This document shows positions 882 to 30,454 of a stretch of DNA of 30,916 nucleotides, in pieces; position 1 is the stretch's first letter; each line of letters opens with the position of its first letter. The stretch lies in assembly GCA_964555165.1 (NCBI GenBank), contig CAZKRN010000040.1, positions 1-30,916 of the forward strand. Direction: 5' to 3'. The DNA is from an uncultured Methyloversatilis sp. GTDB lineage: Bacteria > Pseudomonadota > Gammaproteobacteria > Burkholderiales > Rhodocyclaceae. Position numbers and translations under genes: made by a program. The notes below the pieces were generated by a model. It worked only from the letters and a program-made list of their open reading frames with translations, was not told the origin of the DNA and ran no database searches.

Positions 882-2012
882 GTGCCCGGCCTTCTGCCCA
901 ATGTCGATCCCGAAGGACTGCTCGAATATTCGGTCGTCTATACCGACCGTGCGCTGAACCACATGTCCGCCGCCTTCCAGGGCGTCATGAAGGACATTTC
1001 GCGCGTGCTGAAGCAGGTCTACAACGCCAGGTCGGCCGTCGTCGTGCCCGGCAGCGGCACCTTCGGCATGGAAGCCGTGGCGCGACAGTTCGCCACCGAC
1101 AAGAAGGCGATGGTGATACGCAACGGCTGGTTCAGCTTCCGCTGGACGCAGATTTTCGAGATGGGCCGCATCCCGTCCGAACAGATCGTGCTGAAGGCGC
1201 GCCAGCCGGAGCCGGGTTCGCAGAAGGCGTTCGCGCCGGCGCCGGTCAAGGAAGTCGTCGCCGCCATCCTCGAACAGAAGCCCGCTGTAGTGTTCGCGCC
1301 GCAGGTCGAAACCTCGGCCGGCATGCTCCTGCCGGACGACTACCTGCGCGAGGTCGCCGCCGCCGTGCGCGAGGTCGATGGCCTGTTCGTGGTCGATGCC
1401 ATCGCCGCCGGCACCCTGTGGGTGGACATGGCCGCGCTCGGTATCGACGTGGTGGTGAGCGCGCCGCAGAAAGGCTGGAGCGGTTCGCCCTGCGCCGGTC
1501 TGGTCATGCTGGGCGAACGTGCCCGCGCGCGCATCGACGAAACGACCAGCACCAGCTACGCCTGCGACCTGAAGAAGTGGCTGCAGATCATGGAAGCGTA
1601 CGAGAACGGCGGCCACGCCTATCACGCCACCATGCCGACCGACGGCCTGGTGCAGTTGCGCAAGGTGATGCTGGAAACCGAGCAGTACGGTTTCGACCGG
1701 GTGAAGGCCAACCAGATCGAACTGGGTCGCCAGATACGCGCGCTGCTGGAAGCGAAGGGCTTCGCCAGCGTGGCGGCCGAAGGCTTCCAGGCGCCGTGCG
1801 TCGTGGTGAGTTACACCAGCGACCCGGACATCCAGAACGGCAAGAAGTTTGCCGCCCAGGGCATGCAGATCGCGGCCGGCGTGCCGCTGCAGGTCGACGA
1901 GCCGGCCGATTTCCGTTCCTTCCGCATCGGCCTGTTCGGTCTGGACAAGCTGCAGAACGTCGAACGCTCGGTCGCCAGCTTCAAGGCGACGCTGGACAAG
2001 GTCGCCGGCTGA
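882..2012 (+). CDS. Class-V (AGXT/SGAT-family) PLP aminotransferase; serine-glyoxylate / alanine-glyoxylate aminotransferase-like
   Basis: 376-aa ORF with GTG start at 882 preceded by GGAGAG at a 7-nt spacer. Contains the 'SAPQKGWSGSPCAG' block resembling the PLP-lysine region (S-x-QK) of class-V aminotransferases and an N-terminal 'GSGTFGMEA' motif. Codon usage matches the cbb genes. Confidence 0.75.
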   Translation: MPGLLPNVDPEGLLEYSVVYTDRALNHMSAAFQGVMKDISRVLKQVYNARSAVVVPGSGTFGMEAVARQFATDKKAMVIRNGWFSFRWTQIFEMGRIPSEQIVLKARQPEPGSQKAFAPAPVKEVVAAILEQKPAVVFAPQVETSAGMLLPDDYLREVAAAVREVDGLFVVDAIAAGTLWVDMAALGIDVVVSAPQKGWSGSPCAGLVMLGERARARIDETTSTSYACDLKKWLQIMEAYENGGHAYHATMPTDGLVQLRKVMLETEQYGFDRVKANQIELGRQIRALLEAKGFASVAAEGFQAPCVVVSYTSDPDIQNGKKFAAQGMQIAAGVPLQVDEPADFRSFRIGLFGLDKLQNVERSVASFKATLDKVAG

Positions 2013-2100: not shown

Positions 2101-3096
2101 TCACGCGGCGCTCTGGCGCCGGCCGGGTGCCGCCTCCTCCTGCCCGGCGCCGCACACCTGCATGCTCAAGCCGGTCGCCCGGCTGAGTTGATCCTGCACA
2201 TGCTTCTGGCCGTGCTCGATCAGGAAGCCCTGGAAGTCGGCCGCTACGCGGGTGAGCTGGCGCGATGCGAGCCGGATCACATACCACTCCCGTTCTATCG
2301 GATTGCCGGCTACCGGCAACAGGGTCAGTTCGCCGGATTCGATCTCGTGCCGGCAGATGTGCTGCGACATGAACGCAAGGCCGAAGCCGGCAGCGCACAT
2401 CTGCTTGATCGCCTCATTGCTGGACAGTTCGGAGCCGATGCGCAGATTCAGCCCGGCTTCGCGGAAAAGCTGTTCCAGCGTGGTGCGCGTGCCCGAACCG
2501 CGTTCGCGCACCAGCAGGTCTTCGCGCGCGATATCGCCCAGCGTCAGGCGCTTGCGCGCCATCAGCGGATGCGACGGTGCGGCGACGAAAGCCATGGTGT
2601 GGCGCGCAAACGGCGTGGCCACGGTTTTCAGGTCCTTGGGCGGGCGTCCCATGATGACCAGATCGACTTCCTGCGTGGTGAGCAGGCGCACGATTTCATC
2701 GCGGTTGCCGACCTTGAGTTTCACCTCGACGTTCGGCTGTTCGCGCGCAAACACCACGAGCATGCGCGGCACCAGGTACTCGGCGGTGGTCACCACACCG
2801 ATGCGCAGCCGGCGCGAGACGACGCCGCGATAGGCCGCCATTTCGTCCCCCGCCTCGCGCCACAGGTCGAGAATGCGCGCCGCGTAGTCGGCCATCAGCT
2901 GGCCGGCACCGGTCAGCCGTATGCCCCGCCCCTCGCGCTCGATCAGCGGCGTGCCGGCGGATTCCTCCAGCAGCTTGAGCTGTATCGACACCGCCGGCTG
3001 GGTCAGGTGGATTTCCTGCGCCGCACGCGAAACACTGCCCAGGCGGGCGACGGCGTGCAGTGCGGACAACTGGCGCAAGGTGGCGTTCTTCAGCAT
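2101..3096 (-). CDS. cbbR: LysR-type transcriptional regulator CbbR (RuBisCO operon activator)
   Basis: N-terminal 'MLKNATLRQLSALHAVARLGSVSRAAQEIHLTQPAVSIQLKLLEE' is a canonical LysR wHTH. The gene is divergent from cbbL with about 370 bp between them. Start chosen at ATG 3096 (the ORF track extends to 3159). C-terminal LysR substrate-binding domain of expected length (331 aa). Confidence 0.85.
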   Translation of the reverse strand: MLKNATLRQLSALHAVARLGSVSRAAQEIHLTQPAVSIQLKLLEESAGTPLIEREGRGIRLTGAGQLMADYAARILDLWREAGDEMAAYRGVVSRRLRIGVVTTAEYLVPRMLVVFAREQPNVEVKLKVGNRDEIVRLLTTQEVDLVIMGRPPKDLKTVATPFARHTMAFVAAPSHPLMARKRLTLGDIAREDLLVRERGSGTRTTLEQLFREAGLNLRIGSELSSNEAIKQMCAAGFGLAFMSQHICRHEIESGELTLLPVAGNPIEREWYVIRLASRQLTRVAADFQGFLIEHGQKHVQDQLSRATGLSMQVCGAGQEEAAPGRRQSAA

Positions 3097-4933
<1,837 letters not shown>

Positions 4934-5102: not shown

Positions 5103-5522
5103 ATGCGCATCACCCAAGGCACCTTCTCTTTCCTGCCCGAACTGAGCGACACACAGATCCGCGCCCAGATCGAATACTGTCTGGCCAGGGGCTGGGCGGT
5201 CGGCATCGAGTACACGGACGACCCTCACCCGCGCAACACCTTCTGGGACATGTACGGCAACCCCATGTTCGACCTGCGCGACCCGGCGGCCATCATGCTG
5301 GAGGTGCAGGCCTGCCGCGACACTTTCCCGCAGCACTACATCCGCGTCACCGCTTTCGACTCGACGCACGGCACCGAATCGGTGGTGCTGTCCTTCATCG
5401 TGAACCGGCCCGATGCCGAGCCGGGATTCCGCCTCGTCCGCACCGAAGAGCCGGGCCGCACGGTGCGCTACGCGATCGAGAGCTACGCGGTGCAGTCGCG
5501 CCCCGAGGGCGCGCGCTACTGA
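5103..5522 (+). CDS. cbbS: RuBisCO small subunit (red-type)
   Basis: 139 aa starting '[57 protein letters not shown]', typical form IC/ID small subunit. RBS AGGAGAA 7 nt upstream of ATG 5103. Confidence 0.95.
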
Positions 5523-15008: not shown

Positions 15009-16871
15009 TCAAGCGGTTGCAGCGGTCCCGAGTATGGCCTTCAGCCGCGCCGCGAACCCGCGCTCGGCGGAAGCGGTCACCAGCAGGCGCTCGGTCGAAC
15101 GTGTCATCGCGACATAGAGCAGTTTGGCGTCAGCCGCCACGCGCTCCGTGTCATCCTCTGCTCGCGGCAGCGTGTGGGTGCCGCAAACGACCATGAAGGG
15201 AAACTCCAGCCCCTTGCTGCTGTGCATGGTCATCAGTTTCACTGTGTCTTCCGACGGGCTGAAGCGGCGCTTCGATTGCGAATCGGACAGCCAGTGCACC
15301 GGTATCGATGACGCCTTCAGATAGCGATGCAGGCGGTCGCCGATGTACCTGTCGGGGCAGGCGATACACATGTCGGCCCAGGCCACGCCGCGCTCCGCGT
15401 GCATCTTCTTCAGCGTGCGGGTGATGAGCGCCATTTCGTCGCGGTCGGATCCGACGATGCGCAGCACCGGTGGCGGGCCGCGACGCCCGCTCGACTGAGG
15501 CTCGATCAGTGGCACATGATCGTCGTCGGCATCTGCCGCGGTCAGGTAGACGCGAGCAAAGTCGTAGGCGAAACGAATCACATCCTCGGTGTTGCGATAG
15601 TTCAGCTTGAGTACCGTGCTGCGGCCACGTGCTTGTATGCCCACGCTGGACAGGCTGAAGTCCAGGCCACCACGTTTGCCGTAGATCGACTGCGCGTCGT
15701 CATACAGCATCAGGAAGGAACTGGTTTCCGGGTCGACCATGCCAACGATGAGGCGCAACCACTCCGGCGCGAAATCGTGCCCCTCGTCGATCATCACCGC
15801 ACCGTATTGAGCGCGCGGTATGAGGCCCTTGTCGACGGCGTCGATCACGGTGGATACGAGCTGCTCGAAATAGTCCTTTCCCGTTGCCGGGCGCTCGACG
15901 TGATAGGCCCGCAACTGTTCGCTGCACCAGTCGTGGAAGTGATAGACGCTCACCTTGTCAGCGATACCACGGCTGGCGATAAGGTCACGCAGCCGTGCGG
16001 CCAGCGCGATGTTGTAGCAGAGCACGAGAATGGGTTTCGCGAGCAGCTTGGCCAGATGCAGGCAACGGTAGCCAAGGATGAGCGTCTTGCCGGAGCCGGC
16101 CACGCCATGGATGACGCGGTGCCCGTCGCCCAGGCTGCGGGCCAGCAGTTCCTGCTGCATGTCCATCACCTTGACGAGATCCGGCAGCACGCTATCGGCC
16201 GAAGCTTCGTCATCGACCTCAGCAAACAGGTCCGCCTGCTGATGACCGATGCGCACCTCCGGAAACAGGTGCCAACGGATGCGGTCGATCTGCGGCAGCG
16301 TGAGACTTTGCGGAAAGCTCACGTCAAACATGCTCCACAGCCGCTGCTGAAACTCCTCGGCGTCGCTTGCCTCGCGCATTTCGTCGGCGCAGATGACGCG
16401 ATGTGGCGGCAGAACGTCGCCGAGGTCGGTACCGTCGAACTGCTTGCGCGTCATGCCGCTGAGCACTACGCCATAGCCCCAGGGCAGTACGAGCTTGCCG
16501 CGATATCGACCGTCCTGTTGAACCAGCTGGGGATCGCGCTCCAAGTCGCCGATGAGCTGATAGGCGCACTGCCTTACCTGTTCCAGCGGATTGCTCACCA
16601 CCCGCGGTCCCGCCTCGGTCAGTATCTGCGCCGATACGCGGTCGATGGACTGTATGGTGGCGAGCCGCCAGTCCTTCACTTCCAGCAGCAGCAGGCCACG
16701 GCGGGGGTGCAGGACGATGAAGTCCGAGTACCGCCGGCGGTCGCCGACCGGCATGTCATACCAGCACAGGTAGTCGTCTTCCAGCTTGTCTTCGAGCCGC
16801 TGCGCAAAACGTCGTTCGCCCGCCTGCATTCGGGACGTACACGCGCTGTATGAGGGAATGAGCGTAGCCAT
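15009..16871 (-). CDS. NERD-domain + UvrD/Rep-like superfamily-1 helicase
   Basis: N-terminal 'YLCWYDMPVGDRRRYSDFIVLHPRRGLLLLEVKDW' resembles NERD (nuclease-related domain). Walker A 'GVAGSGKTLILGY', 'AVMIDEGHDF' (Walker B / motif II), C-terminal 'MTMHSSKGLEFPFMVV' (UvrD motif V/VI-like). ATG at 16871, 620 aa. Confidence 0.75.
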   Translation of the reverse strand: MATLIPSYSACTSRMQAGERRFAQRLEDKLEDDYLCWYDMPVGDRRRYSDFIVLHPRRGLLLLEVKDWRLATIQSIDRVSAQILTEAGPRVVSNPLEQVRQCAYQLIGDLERDPQLVQQDGRYRGKLVLPWGYGVVLSGMTRKQFDGTDLGDVLPPHRVICADEMREASDAEEFQQRLWSMFDVSFPQSLTLPQIDRIRWHLFPEVRIGHQQADLFAEVDDEASADSVLPDLVKVMDMQQELLARSLGDGHRVIHGVAGSGKTLILGYRCLHLAKLLAKPILVLCYNIALAARLRDLIASRGIADKVSVYHFHDWCSEQLRAYHVERPATGKDYFEQLVSTVIDAVDKGLIPRAQYGAVMIDEGHDFAPEWLRLIVGMVDPETSSFLMLYDDAQSIYGKRGGLDFSLSSVGIQARGRSTVLKLNYRNTEDVIRFAYDFARVYLTAADADDDHVPLIEPQSSGRRGPPPVLRIVGSDRDEMALITRTLKKMHAERGVAWADMCIACPDRYIGDRLHRYLKASSIPVHWLSDSQSKRRFSPSEDTVKLMTMHSSKGLEFPFMVVCGTHTLPRAEDDTERVAADAKLLYVAMTRSTERLLVTASAERGFAARLKAILGTAATA

Positions 16872-17271
16872 GCCTGGAAGAGGAAGGCGCAAGACAGCCG
16901 GAATGATAGTGGATGTGTTCGAGAGGCTGCGTGGATGCCTAATTGGATGGCGGACCATCCGGTCCTGCGTCGCAAACCGTCCCGATACCGATCGGTGGAA
17001 CGGTGGTGCCGCTGGAGATCGTCCGCTGATCCAACTCGTCGACCCACTACCTTTAAACCTTGCGATCCAGAAACAACGAGACGCTGCAGACCCAGAGCAC
17101 GACCGAGGCCAGCATCGGCACTTGCATTCTGCTCTGGCTGCGCCTCGCTCCAATGCTTCGGCCGCTTCGCCGGACTACAACTTCATCGCCGGTACGATGG
17201 AAGTTCTGGGCCAAGCATGCAATCAACACCCGCCGTCTGTCGGACAATACTTTCGTAACAGAGGATCGCGC

Positions 17272-19788: not shown

Positions 19789-20826
19789 TCAGCCGTCGCG
19801 GCGAGCCACGACCACCTCGGCCCCGGCCGCGGCTTCGTCCAGCGTGATGGAGAGCGGAAGGAAGGCCTCGATCACCTTCACCACGGTACGACAGTGCGAC
19901 GAAACCGTCGTGCACCGGAACCGCGAACCACCCGCCAGCGAGGCCGGGAGCATGATCTGGTCGGCAAGATGTTCACCCACGGGCGCCGTACCGGCCAGAT
20001 AGGCGCGTACCTGGCGCACCAGCGCGACCGCGACCAGCGCCGCCGGTCGGCCGCGTTCGCCGAAGGCCGAGAAGACCTCGGTGGTTGCGTCGCTCGCTAT
20101 CGTCATCTGCAGTACGTTTCCCGGTCCTTCGTTGGCTGGCAAGAGACGGATGTCGCTGCCGATGTCGGGCAATTGCCCGGCCAGGGCGCGGCTCACGGCC
20201 TCGATTTCGCGGCGTGCGACGTCGGCCGGTACGGCAGCGACGATGGACTCGACCCGGGCACCGCGCAGTGTTCCCCGCTCAAGCAGATGCAATGGATCCA
20301 GCCGGGCGACGGGCACCGTGCGGGCGACCAGCCGCCCGCCCCCGGCCGGGTAGAAACCGTGCCTGGGCACGTCGATATCCACGGACGCACCGATGGCACG
20401 CACGTGCGGCACCCAGGCGCGCAGAAGAAAGTCCGCCGTGGGCGCCGCACTGTTGTGCGTGCCACCGCTGATCTCGACCGTGGACGGCGCGTCGGCATGC
20501 CAGAGCGCAGGCAACAGGGTCTGCAGCACCAGCGTCGTACTGCCCGCCGAGCCGATGGCGAATCGATAGTCTCCGCCGCGCACCCGTCCGGGAACGAAGG
20601 TCAGCGCCTGCGACCCCGGCTCAAGCCCGCTGACGCGCGCGCCGCAGATTTCGGCCGACGCACCGACGGCCACCATATGCTGCCTGAGCAGTCCGGGGCG
20701 CGGGCGTCCGGCGCGGATGCGCGTCATGCGGAAGGGGCGTCCGGTGACCATGGACAGGGAAAGTGCGGTACGCAGAATCTGCCCACCCCCTTCGCCGACG
20801 GATCCATCGAGTTCCAGCATGTCCAT
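19789..20826 (-). CDS. rtcA: RNA 3'-terminal phosphate cyclase
   Basis: 'MDMLELDGSVGEGGGQILRTALSLSMVTGRPFRMTRIRAGRPRPGL', then 'EISGGTHNSAAPTADFL' containing the catalytic His of the RtcA family. One nt separates it from the rtcB stop. Confidence 0.9.
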   Translation of the reverse strand: MDMLELDGSVGEGGGQILRTALSLSMVTGRPFRMTRIRAGRPRPGLLRQHMVAVGASAEICGARVSGLEPGSQALTFVPGRVRGGDYRFAIGSAGSTTLVLQTLLPALWHADAPSTVEISGGTHNSAAPTADFLLRAWVPHVRAIGASVDIDVPRHGFYPAGGGRLVARTVPVARLDPLHLLERGTLRGARVESIVAAVPADVARREIEAVSRALAGQLPDIGSDIRLLPANEGPGNVLQMTIASDATTEVFSAFGERGRPAALVAVALVRQVRAYLAGTAPVGEHLADQIMLPASLAGGSRFRCTTVSSHCRTVVKVIEAFLPLSITLDEAAAGAEVVVARRDG

Positions 20827-20827
20827 G

Positions 20828-22039
20828 TCAGCCTTTCACACAGACGATCTGGCTGAGCGTATGGACGACTTCCACAAGCTCGCTCTGGGCCGCCATCACG
20901 GCATCGATGTTCTTGTACGCCATCGGAATCTCGTCGATCACATCGGCGTCCTTGCGGCATTCGACATGCGCCGTCGCCTTGATCTGGTCGTGCACCGAAT
21001 AGCGTCGCTTCGCCTCGTTGCGGCTCATGGTGCGCCCGGCACCGTGACTGCACGAACAGAACGACTGCTCGTTGCCCAGACCGCGGACAATGAAGCTGCG
21101 CGCACCCATGGAGCCGGGGATGATGCCGAGTTCGCCGCGCCTGGCCGATACCGCACCCTTGCGGGTGACCAGCAGGTCGACGCCGAAATGCTCTTCCCGC
21201 TGCACGTAGTTGTGATGGCAGTTCACGGCCTCCACGTCGGCGCGGAAGGGTTTTCCGATTACCGCGCGTGCGGCATCGACGACATGCGCCATCATCACGG
21301 CACGGTTGCGCCGCGCGAAATCCTGCGCCCAGCCGACCGCCTCGACGTAGTCATCGAAGTGCGCACTGCCTTCTTCGAAATAGGCCAGATCGCGGTCGGG
21401 CAGGTTTGCGATGTGTTGCCTCATGTCCTGCTGCGCCAGTTCGATGAAATGGCTTCCGATCGCATTGCCGACGCCACGGGACCCCGAGTGCAGCATGAAC
21501 CACACCTGCTGCGCCTCGTCGACACACACTTCGATGAAGTGATTGCCGGTACCCAGGGTACCCAGGTGCTTGCGGTTGTTCGTGTTGCGCAGACGGGGAT
21601 GCTTTTCGGCCAGACTGTCGAATCCCTGCGCAAGCGCGCCCCACATGGCATCGACTGCGGGAGGCGGCGTGTCCCACGCGCCCTTGTCGCGTCGACCGCG
21701 ACCGACCGTGCGGCCGTGCGGCACGGCGCGCTCGATCGCGCTGCGCAAGGCAAAGAGATTGTCCGGCAGGTCCGAAGCGGCGAGCGTGGTGCGCGCAGCC
21801 ATCATGCCGCAGCCGATATCCACGCCGACCGCGGCGGGAATGATGGCCCCCTGCGTCGGAATCACGCTGCCTATGGTCGATCCCTTGCCCAGATGCACGT
21901 CAGGCATCACCGCAAGATGACCGAATATGAAAGGCATGCGCGCAGTGTTCATGAGTTGGCGACGGGCTTCCTCTTCCACCGGCACACCTTCGGTCCACAT
22001 CTTGATCGGCTTTCCGCCGCTCACTTCGAGTATCTGCAT
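20828..22039 (-). CDS. rtcB: RNA-splicing ligase RtcB (3'-phosphate/5'-OH ligase)
   Basis: 'MPDVHLGKGSTIGSV', 'DIGCGM', 'NHAGRxxSR-like CSHGAGRTMSR' and 'HNYV' are RtcB metal and GMP-binding motifs. Start at ATG 22039 ('MQILEV...') with AAGGA RBS. The ORF-track start at 22126 is an upstream extension. Confidence 0.92.
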   Translation of the reverse strand: MQILEVSGGKPIKMWTEGVPVEEEARRQLMNTARMPFIFGHLAVMPDVHLGKGSTIGSVIPTQGAIIPAAVGVDIGCGMMAARTTLAASDLPDNLFALRSAIERAVPHGRTVGRGRRDKGAWDTPPPAVDAMWGALAQGFDSLAEKHPRLRNTNNRKHLGTLGTGNHFIEVCVDEAQQVWFMLHSGSRGVGNAIGSHFIELAQQDMRQHIANLPDRDLAYFEEGSAHFDDYVEAVGWAQDFARRNRAVMMAHVVDAARAVIGKPFRADVEAVNCHHNYVQREEHFGVDLLVTRKGAVSARRGELGIIPGSMGARSFIVRGLGNEQSFCSCSHGAGRTMSRNEAKRRYSVHDQIKATAHVECRKDADVIDEIPMAYKNIDAVMAAQSELVEVVHTLSQIVCVKG

Positions 22040-22122
22040 GATCCTGTCCTTTGTGCCGACCGAGGGCTTCGTGCCCCCGGCCCCGCTGCCCCATGCAGCG
22101 GGGCTCACTACGATCGCGGGCG

Positions 22123-23262
22123 TCAACCCGCCTTTATGGTCACCAGTCCGTCCAGCACCTGGTCGAGGCCACCGAACACGGATATCCGGTCGATACGCTC
22201 GGCCACCCGCTCCAGCGTCTCCAGCTCCTTCAGGCGCAAGGCGGTCGGGTTGTCCTCCATGACCTTGGCCGTGTTCAAGAGCGAACGGGTCGCGGCGGTT
22301 TCCTCGCGGCGCCGTATCACATTGGCCTGGGCCGACTTCTCGGCCTCGACCACCTGGGCCAGGATGGTCTTCATCTCGCCCGGCAGCACGATGTCCTTCA
22401 CGCCCGCGCTGTGCAGTTCGATGCCGAATCCGGCCATCCGCTTCAGCACATGTGCATTGACCACATCATCGATCAACTGCTTGTTCTCCAGCAGCTCGTC
22501 GAGCGTGCGGGTGCCCACGGCCTCGCGCAGTCCGAGCTGCAGTTCGCGGTACAGATGCTCTGCAGGACGGGCCAGCTTCTCGTGCGCCTGCAGCACGTCG
22601 GTGTAGCGCCAGGTCGCGGAAAGATTGATGCGCAGCCCGACCTTGTCGCGCGACAGGATTTCCTGCCCGCTCACCTCCATGCTCTGCAGGCGGGTATCCA
22701 CCAGTTCCACCTGCACATCGCGGTTGAAGCGCCAGAACGCCTCGACACCGGACGGCGTCAGTCGCTGGATGCAGCCGTCCTTCCGGAGCAGGCCCACGTG
22801 GTAGGGCGGAACCTGGACCACGAGGATGCCAGCGATGCCCAGCACGGGTCGACCACGCAAGGACGGCTGCAGAAGGTGGCTGGCAAGCGAAGCCGGCACC
22901 GCATCGGCTTCGCGCAGATCGACCCGTTCGAGTCGGTGGGTGGTCAGGCCCGACCACATCACGCGCCGCGAACCCGGCGGCAGCACCTCGACCAGCACAT
23001 CGTTCTCGTAGCGCAGACCCGCCTGATCCTCGCCCAGCACGAAATCGTGAAAGTGCATGCGGGCCTGTTCAGGTTCGCGGGCCAGCAGGTAGTCCACAAC
23101 CGCAAAGTCGACGTAAGGCTGTTCGGCCGACACGGTCTGTACCGAAAGGCGACGCAACGGATTCCAGAACACATAGCGGCCGGGTTCGAGCACGCGCTCG
23201 AAGTCTCCGTCGCGCAGCAACACGCCGCGTTCGTTCTTCTTCACCACATGACGCTTCAACAT
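22123..23262 (-). CDS. SPFH/band-7 (slipin-like) domain protein with a roughly 200-aa N-terminal region of unknown function; no N-terminal TM segment
   Basis: C-terminal half 'SRDKVGLRINLSATWRYTDVLQAHEKL...GTRTLDELLENKQLIDDVV...GIELHSAGVKDIVLPGEMKTILAQVVEAEKSAQANVIRRREETAATRS' is a typical SPFH core plus a coiled-coil tail. ATG 23262 is preceded by GGGGAGAAGAG. It is the first gene of the sigma54-promoted rtc operon. Confidence 0.75.
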   Translation of the reverse strand: MLKRHVVKKNERGVLLRDGDFERVLEPGRYVFWNPLRRLSVQTVSAEQPYVDFAVVDYLLAREPEQARMHFHDFVLGEDQAGLRYENDVLVEVLPPGSRRVMWSGLTTHRLERVDLREADAVPASLASHLLQPSLRGRPVLGIAGILVVQVPPYHVGLLRKDGCIQRLTPSGVEAFWRFNRDVQVELVDTRLQSMEVSGQEILSRDKVGLRINLSATWRYTDVLQAHEKLARPAEHLYRELQLGLREAVGTRTLDELLENKQLIDDVVNAHVLKRMAGFGIELHSAGVKDIVLPGEMKTILAQVVEAEKSAQANVIRRREETAATRSLLNTAKVMEDNPTALRLKELETLERVAERIDRISVFGGLDQVLDGLVTIKAG

Positions 23263-23492
23263 TTCTCTTCTCCCCAAGTGATACCGGTCATCACCGGCCC
23301 GGCGAACCCGCTGGCGACCCGCGCGGGGAGGCAGGCAACTGCAGACCGTGGCCCTAGGGCGTCGCGACGTGCGCGGCGATCGCGGACAGGTGCTGCCGGT
23401 CATCTGCCTTGCCGCATGGGCGGTCATGCTGGCTGGCCGGGCCGGCGTCGGCTGCTTGCGCGAGCCGCGACCGGCGGGTATTGCAACAACAG

Positions 23493-23640
23493 CTACAGGA
23501 GCAGGAGTCGAACCTGCGACACACCGCTTTCGCGGCTGCTCTACCTCTGAGCTATCCAGAAGGGCGTGCGGGGAATCGAACCCACGCGAACTCGCCAGAG
23601 CACGCATCCAGATCGCATTCACGGCTGCGGCATGCGCGCT
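23493..23640 (-). ncRNA. tRNA-like element(s) in the rtc operon leader (candidate Y-RNA / tRNA-mimic module)
   Basis: Minus-strand reading: '...GCGTGGGTTCGATTCCCCGCACGCCC | TTCTGGA-TA-GCTC-AGAGGTA-GAGC-A-GCCGCGAAAGCGG-TGTGTC-GCAGG-TTCGACT-CCTGC-TCCTGTAGC'. Perfect D-arm (GCTC/GAGC) with A14 and G18G19. Perfect T-arm (GCAGG/CCTGC) with a TTCGA loop. The anticodon arm is replaced by a CCGC-GAAA-GCGG tetraloop hairpin. A second, bulged T-arm-like hairpin (GGGTTCGATTCCCC) lies immediately 5'. No acceptor stem satisfying tRNA rules was found, so this is not a canonical tRNA gene. Confidence 0.4.
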
Positions 23641-23730
23641 GACAACAGGCACGAACCCGGTCATCGCGCACCAGAGGGCCTGAACACCCGTCTCGTGGGC
23701 ACTTGCAGTGAAGTGCGATCACAGCCTCTT

Positions 23731-23746
23731 CAGCCAGATGCGTGCC
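23731..23746 (-). promoter_or_regulatory. Sigma-54 (-24/-12) promoter of the SPFH-rtcB-rtcA operon
   Basis: Minus strand reads TGGCACG-catc-TGGCT, against the consensus TGGCACG-N4-TTGCW. GG and GC are at the correct 10-nt spacing, with a single mismatch at -14. Lies about 470 nt upstream of the SPFH start, opposite rtcR, whose product is a sigma54 activator. Confidence 0.55.
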
Positions 23747-23771
23747 AGGTCAAAATTTGCTGCGAAGAAGG

Positions 23772-23823
23772 GGGGCAACATATTGATTGGAAATGTGTTT
23801 ATCTCTTCATGTGGGTTGTTGCC
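23772..23823. promoter_or_regulatory. Inverted repeat GGGCAACA-N36-TGTTGCCC upstream of the sigma54 promoter; candidate RtcR upstream activating sequence
   Basis: 8-bp perfect arms, seen in sequence, about 30-90 bp upstream of the -24 element on the activator side. Classical enhancer position for bEBPs. A second dyad GCACTT-GCAGTG-AAGTGC at 23698-23715 lies in the transcribed leader. Confidence 0.35.
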
Positions 23824-23886
23824 CTGCGCATCCATGCCGACCATTGATAGAATTCAGTATCGCTACTTATATTTCTGGATAGCCTT

Positions 23887-25476
23887 GTGAAACGCATCGT
23901 GGTAATCGGCTTTCTCGGTACCCAGCTCGACTACGGCGGCCGGGGCAGTCAGCGTTGGGAGAAATGGAGACCCACCGTAAGCCTCTGCCAGCAACCGGAT
24001 CTGGTCGTGGGCCGGCTGGAGCTGCTGCACGATGCACGCAGCCGGGGCCTGGCCGAACGGGTGAAATCCGATATCGCATCGGTGTCGCCCGAAACCGACG
24101 TCAGGCGTGTCGAGCTCGAGTTGCGCGACCCGTGGGACTTCGAGGAGGTCTATACCGCCCTTCATGACTTCGCACGTGGCTACGCCTTCGACGGAGACAC
24201 GGAGGACTATCTGATTCACATCACCACCGGTACCCACGTTGCGCAGATCTGCTGGTTCCTTCTGGCGGAGTCGCGCTACATGCCGGCGCGCTTGTTGCAG
24301 ACCTCGCCGCCGCGCAAGAAGGACGGTGCCGACCCGGCCGGGCGTTACGAGGTGATCGATCTCGATCTGTCGCGCTACGACAAGATCGCCCAGCGCTTTC
24401 GTCGCGATCACGACGACAACCAGAGCTTTCTCAAGTCCGGTATCGCGACACGCAACAGCGACTTCAACGCGATGATCGAGCAGATCGAGCGCGTGGCGGG
24501 CGTATCACGTGCGCCGATGTTGCTGGTCGGCCCGACCGGCGCGGGCAAGTCCTTTCTTGCCCGACGCATTTACGAACTCAAGCGCTCTTGTCAGCAGCTC
24601 GCCGGTGCGTTCGTCGAAGTGAACTGCGCGACGCTGCGTGGCGATTCGGCAATGTCCGCGTTGTTCGGTCACGTCAAGGGCGCGTTCACCGGAGCCCAGG
24701 GCGATCGCGCCGGGCTGCTGCGCGCGGCCGACAAAGGCCTGCTGTTCCTGGACGAGATCGGAGAGCTTGGCGCGGACGAACAGGCCATGCTGCTCAAGGC
24801 CATCGAAGACAGGCGCTTCCTGCCCTTCGGCGGCGATCGCGAAACGAGCAGCGACTTCCAGTTGATCGCCGGCACGCACAGGGATCTTCGTCTGTGGGTG
24901 GAACAGGGACGCTTCCGCGAAGACCTCTACGCACGGATCAATATGTGGACCTTCGATCTCCCCGGCCTGTCGAGGCGTCGCGAAGACATCGAGCCCAACC
25001 TCGACTTCGAACTTGAGAAGTTCGCCCTGGAGCACGGGCGGCAGGTGCGATTCAACGCCGAGGCACGCCGTCGCTTTCTCGCCTGGGCCACCTCGGCCGA
25101 CGCGATCTGGCGTGGCAACTTTCGCGAACTCGGTGCCGCGGTCACCCGCATGGCAACGCTCGCCCGCAGCGGGCGCATCACGGAAGAACTTGTCGTCGAA
25201 GAGCTCGCGCGTTTGCGTACAAGCTGGGCGGCGCCGGCCGTGCAGGATCGTGTGGCCACCGTACTGGGCAGCGCCGCCGACAGACTCGACCTGTTCGATC
25301 GTTGCCAGCTTGATACCGTGCTGCGGGTCTGCAGCGACTCTGCCAGCCTGTCCGAAGCGGGGAGAAGGCTGTTCTCGGAATCGCGGCAGGCCAAGAAGCA
25401 GGCGAACGACGCCGACCGCCTGCGCAAGTATCTGGCGCGCTTCGGCCTCGACTGGGAGGCGGCCTCGCGCCGCTGA
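23887..25476 (+). CDS. rtcR: RtcR: CARF-domain, sigma54-dependent AAA+ transcriptional activator
   Basis: N-terminal 'MKRIVVIGFLGTQLDYGGRG' (CARF/Rossmann-like as in E. coli RtcR). Central 'LLVGPTGAGKSFLARRIY' Walker A, 'GAFTGA' sigma54-contact motif, 'LLFLDEIGEL' Walker B, 'RFREDLYARIN' R-finger region, C-terminal HTH. GTG start at 23887. Divergent from the sigma54 promoter. Confidence 0.9.
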   Translation: MKRIVVIGFLGTQLDYGGRGSQRWEKWRPTVSLCQQPDLVVGRLELLHDARSRGLAERVKSDIASVSPETDVRRVELELRDPWDFEEVYTALHDFARGYAFDGDTEDYLIHITTGTHVAQICWFLLAESRYMPARLLQTSPPRKKDGADPAGRYEVIDLDLSRYDKIAQRFRRDHDDNQSFLKSGIATRNSDFNAMIEQIERVAGVSRAPMLLVGPTGAGKSFLARRIYELKRSCQQLAGAFVEVNCATLRGDSAMSALFGHVKGAFTGAQGDRAGLLRAADKGLLFLDEIGELGADEQAMLLKAIEDRRFLPFGGDRETSSDFQLIAGTHRDLRLWVEQGRFREDLYARINMWTFDLPGLSRRREDIEPNLDFELEKFALEHGRQVRFNAEARRRFLAWATSADAIWRGNFRELGAAVTRMATLARSGRITEELVVEELARLRTSWAAPAVQDRVATVLGSAADRLDLFDRCQLDTVLRVCSDSASLSEAGRRLFSESRQAKKQANDADRLRKYLARFGLDWEAASRR

Positions 25477-27892: not shown

Positions 27893-28969
27893 TCAACTGG
27901 CCAGTTCGTTGAACAGGGCTTCGTTGATGTAGTACTTCTCGCGGCCATGCTTCTGTTCGCGCAGAATGCCCAGCCCGGCAAGCGTCTGCAGGTAGGTCGA
28001 GGCGGTCTGCCGCTTGGCGATGCCTGCTTCGACGACGAACTGGATCTTGGTGTACGGGTGCCGGAAGATGACCTCGACCAGATCCTTGCTGTAGATCGCC
28101 GGCGCTTCGGTCTGCACCCGTGCGCGCACACTTTCCATCAGGGCACGGATCCGCTGCACCTGGTCGTGGGTCTGCTGCGCGGTCGATTCGATGGCGCGCA
28201 GCATGAACAGAATCCAGTTTTCCCAATCCTGCGACTCGGTGACGCGGCGCAAACCTTCGTAGTAGGCCGCACGGTTGGCGATGATGTAGCGCGACAGGAA
28301 CAGAACCGGAATGTCGAGCAGCCCCTTTTCGACCAGATAGAGCAGATTGATGATGCGCCCGGTACGGCCATTGCCATCCGGAAACGGGTGGATGGCCTCG
28401 AACTGGTAATGCATCACCGCCATCTTCACCAGCGGGTCTACACCGTCTTCGGCGTGGATGAACTGTTCGAGATTGCCCAGCTTGTCGCGGATGACGGCCT
28501 CGCCGACCGGCGGGGTATAGATCACCTGGCCCGCGTCGTTCTTCAGCGCAGTACCCGGAATCGCCCGGATGCCCAGTTCGGTCTGCTTGATCAGGCGGAC
28601 GATTTCGACGAACAGATTGGTCGTCAGCGGCCGTGCCTTCAGCGCCTGAAAGCCGTGATAAAGCGCTTCGCGGTAGCGCAGCACCTCATTCGTGTGCGGA
28701 TCGCTCTTGCCTTCGGGATCGGCATCGGCCCGATACAGCTCATCGTTGGTGGTAACGATGTTCTCGATCTCGGACGACAGACGGGCTTCCTGCAGCGCGA
28801 TGCTGCTGATCAGCATGCCCTGGTTCGGGATCTGTGCCGCCAGTCCGCGCAGGTTGGCCAGCACACGATTTGCGCTGATCGCCTGCTTCAGAACGGCCTT
28901 GGTTTCGAGTTCGACCGGCGGGGGAAGCGAGGGCAGGTCGTTGTAGGGCTGCGCGCGATCGAACGGCAT
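27893..28969 (-). CDS. Fic-family protein (AMPylase), class II with an N-terminal inhibitory helix
   Basis: Active-site motif 'HPFPDGNGRTGR' matches HPFx(D/E)GNGRxxR. N-terminal 'SSEIEN' matches the autoinhibitory (S/T)xxxE(G/N) motif. 358 aa with a C-terminal wHTH-like extension ('YLQTLAGLGIL'). Confidence 0.88.
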   Translation of the reverse strand: MPFDRAQPYNDLPSLPPPVELETKAVLKQAISANRVLANLRGLAAQIPNQGMLISSIALQEARLSSEIENIVTTNDELYRADADPEGKSDPHTNEVLRYREALYHGFQALKARPLTTNLFVEIVRLIKQTELGIRAIPGTALKNDAGQVIYTPPVGEAVIRDKLGNLEQFIHAEDGVDPLVKMAVMHYQFEAIHPFPDGNGRTGRIINLLYLVEKGLLDIPVLFLSRYIIANRAAYYEGLRRVTESQDWENWILFMLRAIESTAQQTHDQVQRIRALMESVRARVQTEAPAIYSKDLVEVIFRHPYTKIQFVVEAGIAKRQTASTYLQTLAGLGILREQKHGREKYYINEALFNELAS

Positions 28970-29168: not shown

Positions 29169-30101
29169 TCAGGCAACTCCGTTGTATGTCTCTGGGACAG
29201 CAATGATTGGGCCAGTGAGTGCTTTGGTCGGATATATCAAGAGCAACACGTTGTAGGGCGTTTTAAAGGCCTCGCCCAGACACTCATGGGTGTCTCCGTT
29301 GCGGTCGCTGTAAAGAAGCTGCGTTGGCCTGGTCATTTTCCTTCCGATCGGCAGTAGGTCGCCCAAGGCGTGCGAAACGTCGATACGCTCAGCTACTGGA
29401 ATACCAAATTGTTGTGCGAATGAAGGCGAAGCCTCAATGCGACGCACCTCTGCGTACGGCGGAAGACCCGGTAGCAACTGGATTGGCTCCAAGATGTAGA
29501 GGAGGCATGCTCGGTGATTAGTTCTCGCGAATTCTCGAGCCGACGCATATACCGAAGCACCAAATTTCTTGGAAAGCGCGATAGGTGTCTTTACGGCCAT
29601 CGGCATGTCCGAGGCCATCTCCTTATAGGCGGTCCCCTGAAACAGCGCGTAGCGTGCAAAATTGTTAGCCTCGCGCTCAAACTGGTCGGCGACGGTTGGG
29701 GCCAAGGTCTGCTCGCAGTCTTGGAAGAGCCGAAACACTTTCCGATGGGTCGGCAATTCATGGTGCCCCGTCTCATGCAGTTTTAGAAAAGTCTGCTTAG
29801 ACGCGCCGACGCTGTCATCGATGTGGATGATTTGCTCGTTCGCGTCATAGAGACCCAGAACCTTGGACAGGGCGGACTTGAGCGTCTGCGCCGCCTCGAC
29901 GGTTTTCCTTTTCACGAACGCTAGGAAGGCGGCAGCGTCAAACATCTCCTTGGGTGCCACACGCAGCTTCGCTGCACTGAGGATGTCCTCAACCGGCGTG
30001 GGAAAGCGCCCCCATGCTGATGCCCGATTAAGCAGATCCTGTGCCTGTCGTTCGACAGCGGCCAGTTCAAAGGATTGAAGACTGCTGTCGTCGGGCTTCA
30101 T
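29169..30101 (-). CDS. ImmA/IrrE-family (M78) zinc metallopeptidase
   Basis: 'FLKLHETGHHELPTH' contains HExxH. About 310 aa. Start overlaps the stop of the upstream XRE gene (ATGA), the typical HTH-ImmA / CapH-CapP-like arrangement. Confidence 0.8.
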   Translation of the reverse strand: MKPDDSSLQSFELAAVERQAQDLLNRASAWGRFPTPVEDILSAAKLRVAPKEMFDAAAFLAFVKRKTVEAAQTLKSALSKVLGLYDANEQIIHIDDSVGASKQTFLKLHETGHHELPTHRKVFRLFQDCEQTLAPTVADQFEREANNFARYALFQGTAYKEMASDMPMAVKTPIALSKKFGASVYASAREFARTNHRACLLYILEPIQLLPGLPPYAEVRRIEASPSFAQQFGIPVAERIDVSHALGDLLPIGRKMTRPTQLLYSDRNGDTHECLGEAFKTPYNVLLLIYPTKALTGPIIAVPETYNGVA

Positions 30102-30454
30102 CAGGTGCGTTTCCTCGAGCGGATATGCTTAAGAAAATCTAGGAGTTCAGCTTCCTCGTCAGGGCTCAGGTTGTGCTCGGCAAACGTCGCGATTCGGCCG
30201 TGCCGCTGCCCTTCACTGCGCGTGGCAGCGGCAGGCAGGTAGCCCGCGAGTTCCATCAGCGTGATGTACTCGATTCTGTAGATCTCAGCCAGCTTATTGA
30301 GGATGGTCGGACTTGGCTGCTGGATCTTCCCATTCTCAAGCTGACTAAGGTAGGCGTTCGAAACTTCCTTGCCACTGGCCTCTTCGACCTGCCTAAGCGA
30401 CATCTTCCGATCGTTACGGATAGAGGCGAGGTACTGCCCTAAGGTGACTTTCAC
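30101..30454 (-). CDS. XRE-family helix-turn-helix transcriptional regulator
   Basis: 'LGQYLASIRNDRKMSLRQVEEASGKEVSNAYLSQLENGK' is a Cro/CI-type HTH. 117 aa. Apparent GTG start at 30454. Translationally coupled to the ImmA-like gene. Confidence 0.8.
   Translation of the reverse strand: MKVTLGQYLASIRNDRKMSLRQVEEASGKEVSNAYLSQLENGKIQQPSPTILNKLAEIYRIEYITLMELAGYLPAAATRSEGQRHGRIATFAEHNLSPDEEAELLDFLKHIRSRKRT

Follow-up and report, generated by a model that had tools for sequence, protein, structure and literature searches.

The locus analysed here raises the question of why an RNA that resembles a tRNA, and for which no anticodon can be defined, stands at the head of an RNA-repair operon. The window, meaning the whole stretch of DNA that was analysed, comprises 30,916 nucleotides (nt), positions 1 to 30,916 of contig CAZKRN010000040.1 (GCA_964555165.1), of an uncultured Methyloversatilis sp. 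of the Rhodocyclaceae. On its minus strand, a tRNA-like element, here called module 2, lies in the leader of an operon. Open reading frames (ORFs) and Pfam scans gave the order leader, Band-7/SPFH protein (slipin), RtcB and RtcA, with the RtcR gene divergent. From the comparison of orthologous loci, we assign the element with high confidence to the b7a-tRNAs (band 7-associated tRNAs), non-decoding tRNA mimics that head Band-7/slipin-RtcB(-RtcA) repair operons. The best explanation of the whole, to which we give a probability of about 55%, joins this identity to a role of the RNA as partner of a slipin-RtcB repair complex.

The tRNA-like element and its conservation

23493..23561, minus strand: module 2, assigned to b7a-tRNA; Rfam tRNA model, 40.3 bits; ARAGORN; own covariance model R1, 71.0 bits

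The initial annotation, made by reading the letters, had described a tRNA mimic at this place and proposed a check with Rfam models. In that check, RF00005 matched 23561-23493 over model positions 1 to 71 with 40.3 bits (gathering score 29; E=2.2e-05 for the whole window), and no other Rfam family exceeded its threshold in the window. Over the whole window ARAGORN called a single tRNA-like gene, located at 23492-23561 and labelled tRNA-??? with an undefinable anticodon. The D arm UA-GCUC-AGAGGUA-GAGC, the segment CCGC-GAAA-GCGG and the T arm GCAGG-UUCGACU-CCUGC that had been pointed out were confirmed on the minus strand at 23554-23500.

The complete element has an acceptor of UUCUGGA (23561-23555) with UCCUGUA (23500-23494), in which five of seven positions are paired in the Rfam alignment. 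The D stem GCUC/GAGC, an anticodon stem GCCGC/GCGGU capped by GAAA, the variable region GUGUC and the T arm follow; the discriminator is G, and CCA is not encoded. Across this element and the module preceding it (module 1, below), the minus strand of the window reads ...GCGUGGGUUCGAUUCCCCGCACGCCC-UUCUGGAUAGCUCAGAGGUAGAGCAGCCGCGAAAGCGGUGUGUCGCAGGUUCGACUCCUGCUCCUGUAG... The earlier description of an element with no acceptor stem and a replaced anticodon arm needs to be corrected. The acceptor is a seven-position stem with 5 pairs here, and its inner four pairs covary across 56 orthologues. The 5-bp anticodon stem is kept, and the arm differs only in its loop, cut from 7 nt to GAAA.

For comparison, 80 orthologous slipin loci of Beta- and Gammaproteobacteria with 60-73% protein identity were taken from the slipin homologue alignment. 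Module 2 was aligned in 56 sequences (alignment A2), on which R1 was built, and this and the later alignments were tested against 500 shuffles and against slid controls. R1 found module 2 at the same place in 78 of the 80 loci, as well as in the window (71.0 bits). The scores of family members (54.6-90.8 bits) overlap with those of genuine tRNAs from these loci, which reach 66.5 bits at most. In most loci ARAGORN placed a tRNA-like gene about 250-340 nt upstream of slipin, with 'anticodons' that differed by locus. Many of these elements received ordinary identities (Met, Ile, Thr, Val and others) and are likely mis-annotated as tRNA genes.

The cloverleaf was paired in 90.3% of the cells of A2 compared to 75.4% in the shuffles, and covariation was 0.430 compared to 0.146. 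Neither value was reached in any of the 500 shuffles, and the slid controls gave 32-44% paired cells. The anticodon stem was paired in 99.3% of cells with compensatory changes in all five pairs, and three pairs of the T stem also carried compensatory changes. In the acceptor the inner four pairs were kept with GC/CG/UA swaps (at one position 35 GC, 18 CG and 2 UA), and the outer three positions were mostly unpaired. The D stem GCUC/GAGC was invariant (56/56), U8-A14 was present in 51 of 56 sequences, and G18G19, G46, U54U55C56 and A58 were at or near 100%. D- and T-arm pairing in orthologous leaders, on which the initial annotation had let its proposal stand or fall, is thus conserved.

The anticodon loop behaved differently from these invariant parts. 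Among the 56 orthologues it measured 2-8 nt with unrelated sequences, 7 nt in 30 of them and 4-6 nt in 24. Loops of 7 nt usually read CU-NNN-AA with NNN variable, and the short loops were often UUCG, GAAA or GCAA. The trinucleotide CCA, as (N)CCA, followed the stem of module 2 in only 4 of 70 distinct loci. Since the loop is variable and often shortened, the element is not a decoder; the outer acceptor pairs, usually unpaired, and the lack of an encoded CCA fit this reading. The pattern across the alignment shows selection on the L shape and the elbow, not on decoding.

A functionless remnant of a decayed tRNA gene or of an integration site, as the initial annotation had considered, would account for the truncated anticodon loop, the imperfect acceptor and the missing CCA, and the surroundings of the operon (NERD-UvrD helicase, Fic, HTH/ImmA pair) resemble a variable island. 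However, 78 of 80 orthologous loci, from two proteobacterial classes, carry the element in the same position, every stem is maintained by compensatory changes, and the element sits within a larger covarying RNA. Among the ORFs scanned with Pfam around the operon there was no integrase, and an att-like duplication was not noticed by eye, with no repeat search run. Conservation and covariation therefore refute a pseudogene or att remnant, and the freely varying 'anticodon' loop likewise speaks against decoder, pseudogene and remnant alike. We regard such an origin as extremely improbable.

Structure of the leader

22123..23262, minus strand: Band-7/SPFH (slipin) gene, 379 amino acids (aa), first coding gene of the operon; Pfam PF01145, E=6.5e-31
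23733..23746, minus strand: sigma54-type promoter TGGCACGCATCTGGC, a sequence motif with the -24 GG at 23746-23745 and the -12 GC at 23734-23733
23629..23693, minus strand: 5' domain, hairpin Ha and long hairpin Hb; alignment A3
23562..23607, minus strand: module 1, acceptor-like stem, linker and T arm, directly abutting module 2
23283..23475, minus strand: 3' domain of about 190 nt, closed by long-range pairing; alignment A4

Because the sigma54-type promoter lies at 23746-23733 and slipin starts at 23262, a leader of about 460 nt is expected, and it contains the tRNA-like element. Judging from the promoter motif, transcription would start near 23721. In the full-length leader alignment, blocks of conservation run from promoter to start codon. 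The placement of a tRNA mimic inside an RtcR/sigma54-driven rtc leader, as first proposed, is supported by this arrangement.

The start of slipin was assigned to ATG 23262 with the upstream ribosome-binding site GGGGAGAAG. This start agrees with the 7901 slipin homologues detected, almost all of which are about 379 aa long. A longer ORF, 22123-23664, is open in the slipin frame and continues upstream through the 3' domain and modules 2 and 1 into the 5' domain. Its coding reading was rejected, as nearly all homologues begin at the position equivalent to 23262 and the region upstream shows compensatory base-pair changes and alignment gaps; the extension is an artefact across the RNA. Two slipin entries in the database (P0002, 525 aa, and P0006, 475 aa) are extended N-terminally in this way, and the RNA is probably hidden under these extensions.

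Module 1 contains the second T-loop hairpin that had been noted directly upstream (GGGUUCGAUUCCCC, present at 23583-23570). Its acceptor-like stem is formed by AUGCGUG (23607-23601) and CACGCCC (23568-23562) with an inner 5 bp, its linker in the window is CUCUGGCGAGUUCGC, and its T arm is GUGGG-UUCGAUU-CCCCG (23585-23569), with only 3 good pairs of 5. Two GTTCGAnTC T-loop motifs 54-83 nt apart were found in 70 of the 80 loci and in the window. The order in module 1 is a 7-nt acceptor-like strand, a 10-30-nt linker with YNGGYG (sometimes with a GNRA hairpin), a T arm and the complementary acceptor strand. The best acceptor complementarity averaged 6.33 of 7 positions compared to 5.29 +/- 0.085 after permutation (maximum 5.54 in 300 permutations). 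(N)CCA follows the module 1 stem in 30 of 68 distinct loci, a far larger share than after module 2.

In eleven Pseudomonas loci, module 1 is a complete second cloverleaf. The two tRNA-like units are arranged head to tail there with an overlap of 1-3 nt (for example 3607-3680 and 3678-3749 in locus L048). In the Betaproteobacteria the first cloverleaf is reduced to an acceptor/T-arm minihelix.

The 5' domain holds the invariant GGUG and AUGCCGC motifs. Ha pairs 23693-23686 with 23679-23673, and Hb pairs 23672-23656 with 23649-23629. In A3 (48 sequences), the 22 pairs of this domain were paired in 92.9% of cells compared to 76.2% in the shuffles (0/500), 17 pairs were compensatory, and the slid controls gave 40-52%. 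The window makes 21 of the 22 pairs. An alternative pairing, CAC(R)GG/CC(G)GUG, clashes with Hb and was dropped for the RNAalifold model.

The 3' domain is closed by an outer helix of 23475-23469 with 23289-23283 and a second helix of 23447-23436 with 23303-23292, and inner helices extend to 23408 and 23330. In A4 (30 sequences), its 36 pairs were paired in 91.8% of cells compared to 75.0% in the shuffles (0/500), 32 pairs were compensatory, and the slid controls gave 31-46%. The window makes 35 of the 36 pairs. CCGGUGAUGACCGG was considered as a local 3' stem-loop and rejected, since the comparative model places it in the long-range closing helices.

No Rfam 15 family was found for the 5' and 3' domains, nor one for the tandem module 1 or for the tetraloop form of the element; in the window and 15 orthologous loci, RF00005 gave the only matches. 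In a permissive Rfam search of 22800-24100, all other matches were far below their gathering scores (E 1.9-9). The single-sequence fold of the leader had z = -1.46, which is uninformative alone, and the structure described here was derived from the comparative analysis only.

The leader varies in compactness. Counted from the sigma54 -12 element, GGUG follows after 43-46 nt in three cases (the window, L013 and L019) and after 54-65 nt in the other loci, with L075 as an outlier. The same three also do not have the CUGUCC...GGACAG hairpin found after module 2 elsewhere, and form a compact leader sub-variant.

The position of the RNA could mean that modules and domains act in cis, on their own mRNA only. 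They might be processing 'punctuation' for RNase P or RNase E, through which the slipin-rtcBA message acquires a 5' end that is defined and stable, or a structured 5' untranslated region that binds RtcB, RtcA or a tRNA-binding factor for translation feedback. The RNA is indeed always directly 5' of slipin on the same strand and at a nearly constant distance (3' region of 214-343 nt, mostly 240-290 nt), no terminator lies between the RNA and the coding region, and about 7 nt separate the end of the 3' domain from the ribosome-binding site. However, the conserved helices include neither the ribosome-binding site nor the start codon, and there was no sign of an alternative pairing or of a terminator. 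Four independently covarying domains over about 460 nt also far exceed what a processing signal needs, and the invariant D-stem and elbow sequences indicate a specific trans-acting partner. Furthermore, the part of a preprint that treats these RNAs (bioRxiv 10.1101/312249) describes occasional exchange of protein partners between b7a-tRNA and YrlA, the tRNA mimic of rsr-yrlBA-rtcBA operons, and such swaps argue for a trans-acting cofactor. A purely cis-acting leader is therefore judged unlikely, though it is the foremost of the functional alternatives to a trans-acting partner. As the 5' and 3' domains covary, no terminator-like or attenuator site is present in the leader and the ribosome-binding site is outside its predicted helices, the leader is best described as a structured RNA and not as an expression switch.

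Association with slipin, RtcB and RtcR

20828..22039, minus strand: RtcB RNA ligase; Pfam PF01139, E=1.8e-129; ORF 20828-22126, start probably ATG 22039 behind an AAGGA ribosome-binding site
19789..20826, minus strand: RtcA RNA 3'-phosphate cyclase; Pfam PF01137, E=1.2e-73, and PF05189
23887..25476, plus strand, divergent: RtcR, CARF-domain sigma54 activator; Pfam PF06956, E=2.7e-88, and PF00158

Of the 80 loci, 64 encode RtcB downstream of slipin, 55 have a divergent RtcR gene, and 25 have RtcA. The sigma54 motif TGGCAYG-N4-NNGC was found in 39 of the 55 RtcR-encoding loci, in most cases 54-65 nt ahead of GGUG. The motif was absent from Comamonadaceae-type loci without RtcR; three matches occurred among the loci scored as lacking RtcR, all in non-Comamonadaceae lineages. 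Loci that have neither RtcR nor the sigma54 motif keep all four leader domains upstream of slipin. The RNA therefore goes with slipin and not with the RtcR sensor. Its structures, their conservation and this genetic coupling to slipin are established at the level of sequence comparison.

This result bears on the decoy and self-priming inducer that the initial annotation had offered. The RNA would then be bait for anticodon nucleases or tRNA-targeting toxins, or it would be cleaved to 2',3'-cyclic-phosphate fragments that bind the CARF domain of RtcR and amplify induction. RtcR is activated by tRNA fragments with a cyclic-phosphate end, and the window element is predicted to be transcribed from an RtcR-dependent promoter. 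Induction of the operon in Salmonella went along with tRNA halves that were ascribed to an anticodon nuclease; this inducing nuclease left YrlA itself uncleaved, which speaks against this role. Anticodon nucleases recognise anticodon-loop sequences, yet this loop is unconstrained here and often a 4-nt tetraloop. In addition, the complete RNA persists with slipin in lineages without an adjacent RtcR or sigma54 promoter. A decoy or inducer is accordingly disfavoured, and we consider it more doubtful than action in cis.

In eleven of the Comamonadaceae/Burkholderiales-type loci without RtcR and sigma54 promoter, same-strand tRNA arrays lie upstream. Up to 9 high-scoring, apparently genuine tRNA genes precede the leader-slipin-RtcB unit (in L037 at 2145-2705 and 2890-3483), and in L037 an HNH-endonuclease-like ORF is located between the array and the leader. 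Such arrays together with the slipin-RtcB unit could represent an island of tRNA supply plus tRNA repair.

Some relatives have a slipin-rtcB gap of about 300-500 nt; the gap in the window is about 85 nt and has no extra RNA element. In L001, an RNA-like element of about 220 nt occupies this gap (5173-5393), with the acceptor GGGCGUG/CACGUCC, the T arm GCGGG-UUCGAGU-CCCGC and a GCCA end. Its shape is like that of transfer-messenger RNA (tmRNA), with scores far below the tmRNA thresholds, and T-arm matches were also seen in L011 (5582-5598) and L015 (5344-5360). In the Acidovorax benzenivorans locus L078, an RNase P RNA gene (1295-1634, minus strand; RF00010, 205 bits) adjoins rtcR, which may be coincidence.

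The slipin protein was analysed by profile and model comparison. Its family profile matches stomatin structures (E about 1e-23). The AlphaFold model (mean pLDDT 69.5) comprises an N-terminal beta-rich region of about 190 aa, an SPFH domain and long C-terminal helices, and its best Foldseek matches were the stomatin 16-mer and the HflK/C, prohibitin, erlin and flotillin cages. A hydrophobic membrane segment was not seen on reading the sequence, with no prediction tool run; the absence of such a segment would be unusual for a stomatin-family protein. On this model, slipin is plausibly a soluble ring- or cage-forming scaffold, which fits an analogy to the Ro60 ring. Residues 1-190 form three similar beta-rich units with pLDDT 80-90 and a recurring G-x-L-x-R-D-G...L-x-P-G...W pattern, and these units resemble the first strands of the SPFH domain, repeated.

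Among the ORFs between about 13.8 and 30.4 kb, Pfam identified Band_7, RtcB, RtcA, RtcR, EamA, histidine kinase, N-acetyltransferase, Fic and others, and no TROVE/Ro60 domain. The earlier statement that no Ro60/Rsr gene is present was thus correct; the Band-7/SPFH gene directly downstream of the leader (22123-23262) had been overlooked. On the RtcR side, a sigma70-like promoter is present at 23844-23873 on the plus strand. The neighbours of the operon (15009-17153, 27893-28969, 29169-30454) include a NERD-UvrD helicase, a Fic/SoFic-like protein and an HTH-XRE plus ImmA/IrrE (M78) pair, a set typical of variable or defence-type islands, in which an integrase was not seen. A phage origin was rejected, as the viral contig collection holds only one slipin relative.

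Relation to known RNAs and proposed role

The b7a-tRNA is described in the preprint (bioRxiv 10.1101/312249) as a predicted non-coding RNA with a strong resemblance to tRNA beside a Band-7 gene and RtcB, credited to Burroughs and Aravind (Nucleic Acids Res 2016;44:8525), and as the proposed Band-7 counterpart of the Y RNA of Ro60. The arrangement in the window is identical to this description, and nothing in it contradicts membership. The Band-7 gene lies on the same strand as the element (element end 23493, slipin start 23262), RtcB and RtcA come next, and the resemblance to tRNA is above threshold. Two Pseudomonas aeruginosa papers merely mention the SPFH gene (PA4582 = PaFlo8) in the rtc locus.

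The initial annotation had compared the element to YrlA, and the likeness holds at the level of function: the element appears as an analogue of YrlA. Like YrlA (Chen et al., RNA 2014; PDB 6CU1), it mimics tRNA with both the D and the T arm intact, and the nucleotides of the tertiary contacts are conserved in each of the two RNAs. In both, the D- and T-stem sequences are conserved beyond the needs of the fold (for YrlA by published description), and both belong to RtcR-controlled RtcB operons beside the gene of a ring- or cage-forming scaffold. The element is nevertheless not a YrlA. YrlA is permuted, with a closed acceptor-like hairpin, and its 5' and 3' ends leave the anticodon-equivalent stem into the Ro60-binding helix (bioRxiv 10.1101/312249). 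The window element has the normal tRNA topology, with an open acceptor and a closed, GAAA-capped anticodon stem. It has no Ro60/TROVE gene on the same strand within about 4 kb, the context that marks a YrlA, and the GNCGAA(N)G motif of YrlA was not found by eye in the window.

Compared to canonical tRNA, the element scores above the Rfam threshold and retains U8, A14, G18G19, G46, U54U55C56 and A58, and about half of its orthologues keep a 7-nt CU-NNN-AA loop. It differs in the 4-nt loop of the window, the unconserved anticodon, the outer acceptor pairs that are usually missing and the CCA that is not encoded. Module 1 resembles the tRNA-like domain of tmRNA in shape only. They share an acceptor and a T arm, often CCA, the absence of a D stem and anticodon arm, and a GG-containing linker at the place of the D loop. 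Module 1 has no mRNA-like part or pseudoknots, unlike tmRNA, and the copy in the window is without CCA. The tmRNA models gave only a 13-nt T-arm match on module 1 (beta_tmRNA, 9 bits compared to a gathering score of 84, E=3.4).

The favoured mechanism, held at about even odds, is that of a trans-acting RNA partner of the slipin-RtcB repair complex with the elbow and D stem as its interaction surface. Upon sensed RNA damage, RtcR and sigma54 would transcribe the leader together with slipin, rtcB and rtcA. The transcript would carry the two-hairpin 5' domain, the module 1 minihelix, the module 2 cloverleaf and the closed 3' domain of about 190 nt, and its tRNA-like modules would fold into an L shape. 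They would probably be cut out by tRNA-processing enzymes, with RNase P acting at the module junctions. The released modules might then serve as the RNA partner of a slipin oligomer, a soluble stomatin-like ring or cage, as Y RNA does on the Ro60 ring. The invariant elbow and D stem may recruit RtcB or another tRNA-binding factor, or position it, on damaged tRNA-like substrates.

Several points weigh against this explanation. We infer transcription, processing, slipin binding and a role in ligation from sequence and gene context. The short acceptor stem of module 2 may make it a poor RNase P substrate. Module 1 of the window is a weakened, degenerate copy with 5 acceptor pairs, 3 of 5 T-stem pairs and no CCA. 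The definition of b7a-tRNA used here is second-hand, from the passages of the citing preprint bioRxiv 10.1101/312249, which call the RNA experimentally unvalidated as of 2018, and a literature search found no later experimental validation.

A wider version is that the leader works as a single multi-domain non-coding RNA of about 460 nt, the dedicated RNA of a slipin cage with RtcB. It would amount to a second, independently evolved ribonucleoprotein of the Ro60/Y RNA kind. We put this forward tentatively, at clearly less than even odds. This kind of feature was already predicted in 2016; what is added here is the tandem arrangement of the modules and two further covarying domains without an Rfam entry. 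The extended architecture of about 460 nt has no Rfam family and may be previously undescribed.

For annotation, the consequence is that an arbitrary anticodon and the label of an ordinary tRNA gene are given to some of these elements, and that slipin genes are sometimes extended across the RNA. For RNA repair, the locus bears on how bacterial RtcB finds its substrates and on why tRNA-like RNAs and proteins that form rings or cages occur together in its operons. It provides a clean sigma54/RtcR-controlled example of the Band-7 version. The comparative data yield RNA domains that can be tested, namely a D stem and elbow that do not vary, an anticodon loop that is dispensable, a minihelix with a CCA tail and two further covarying domains.

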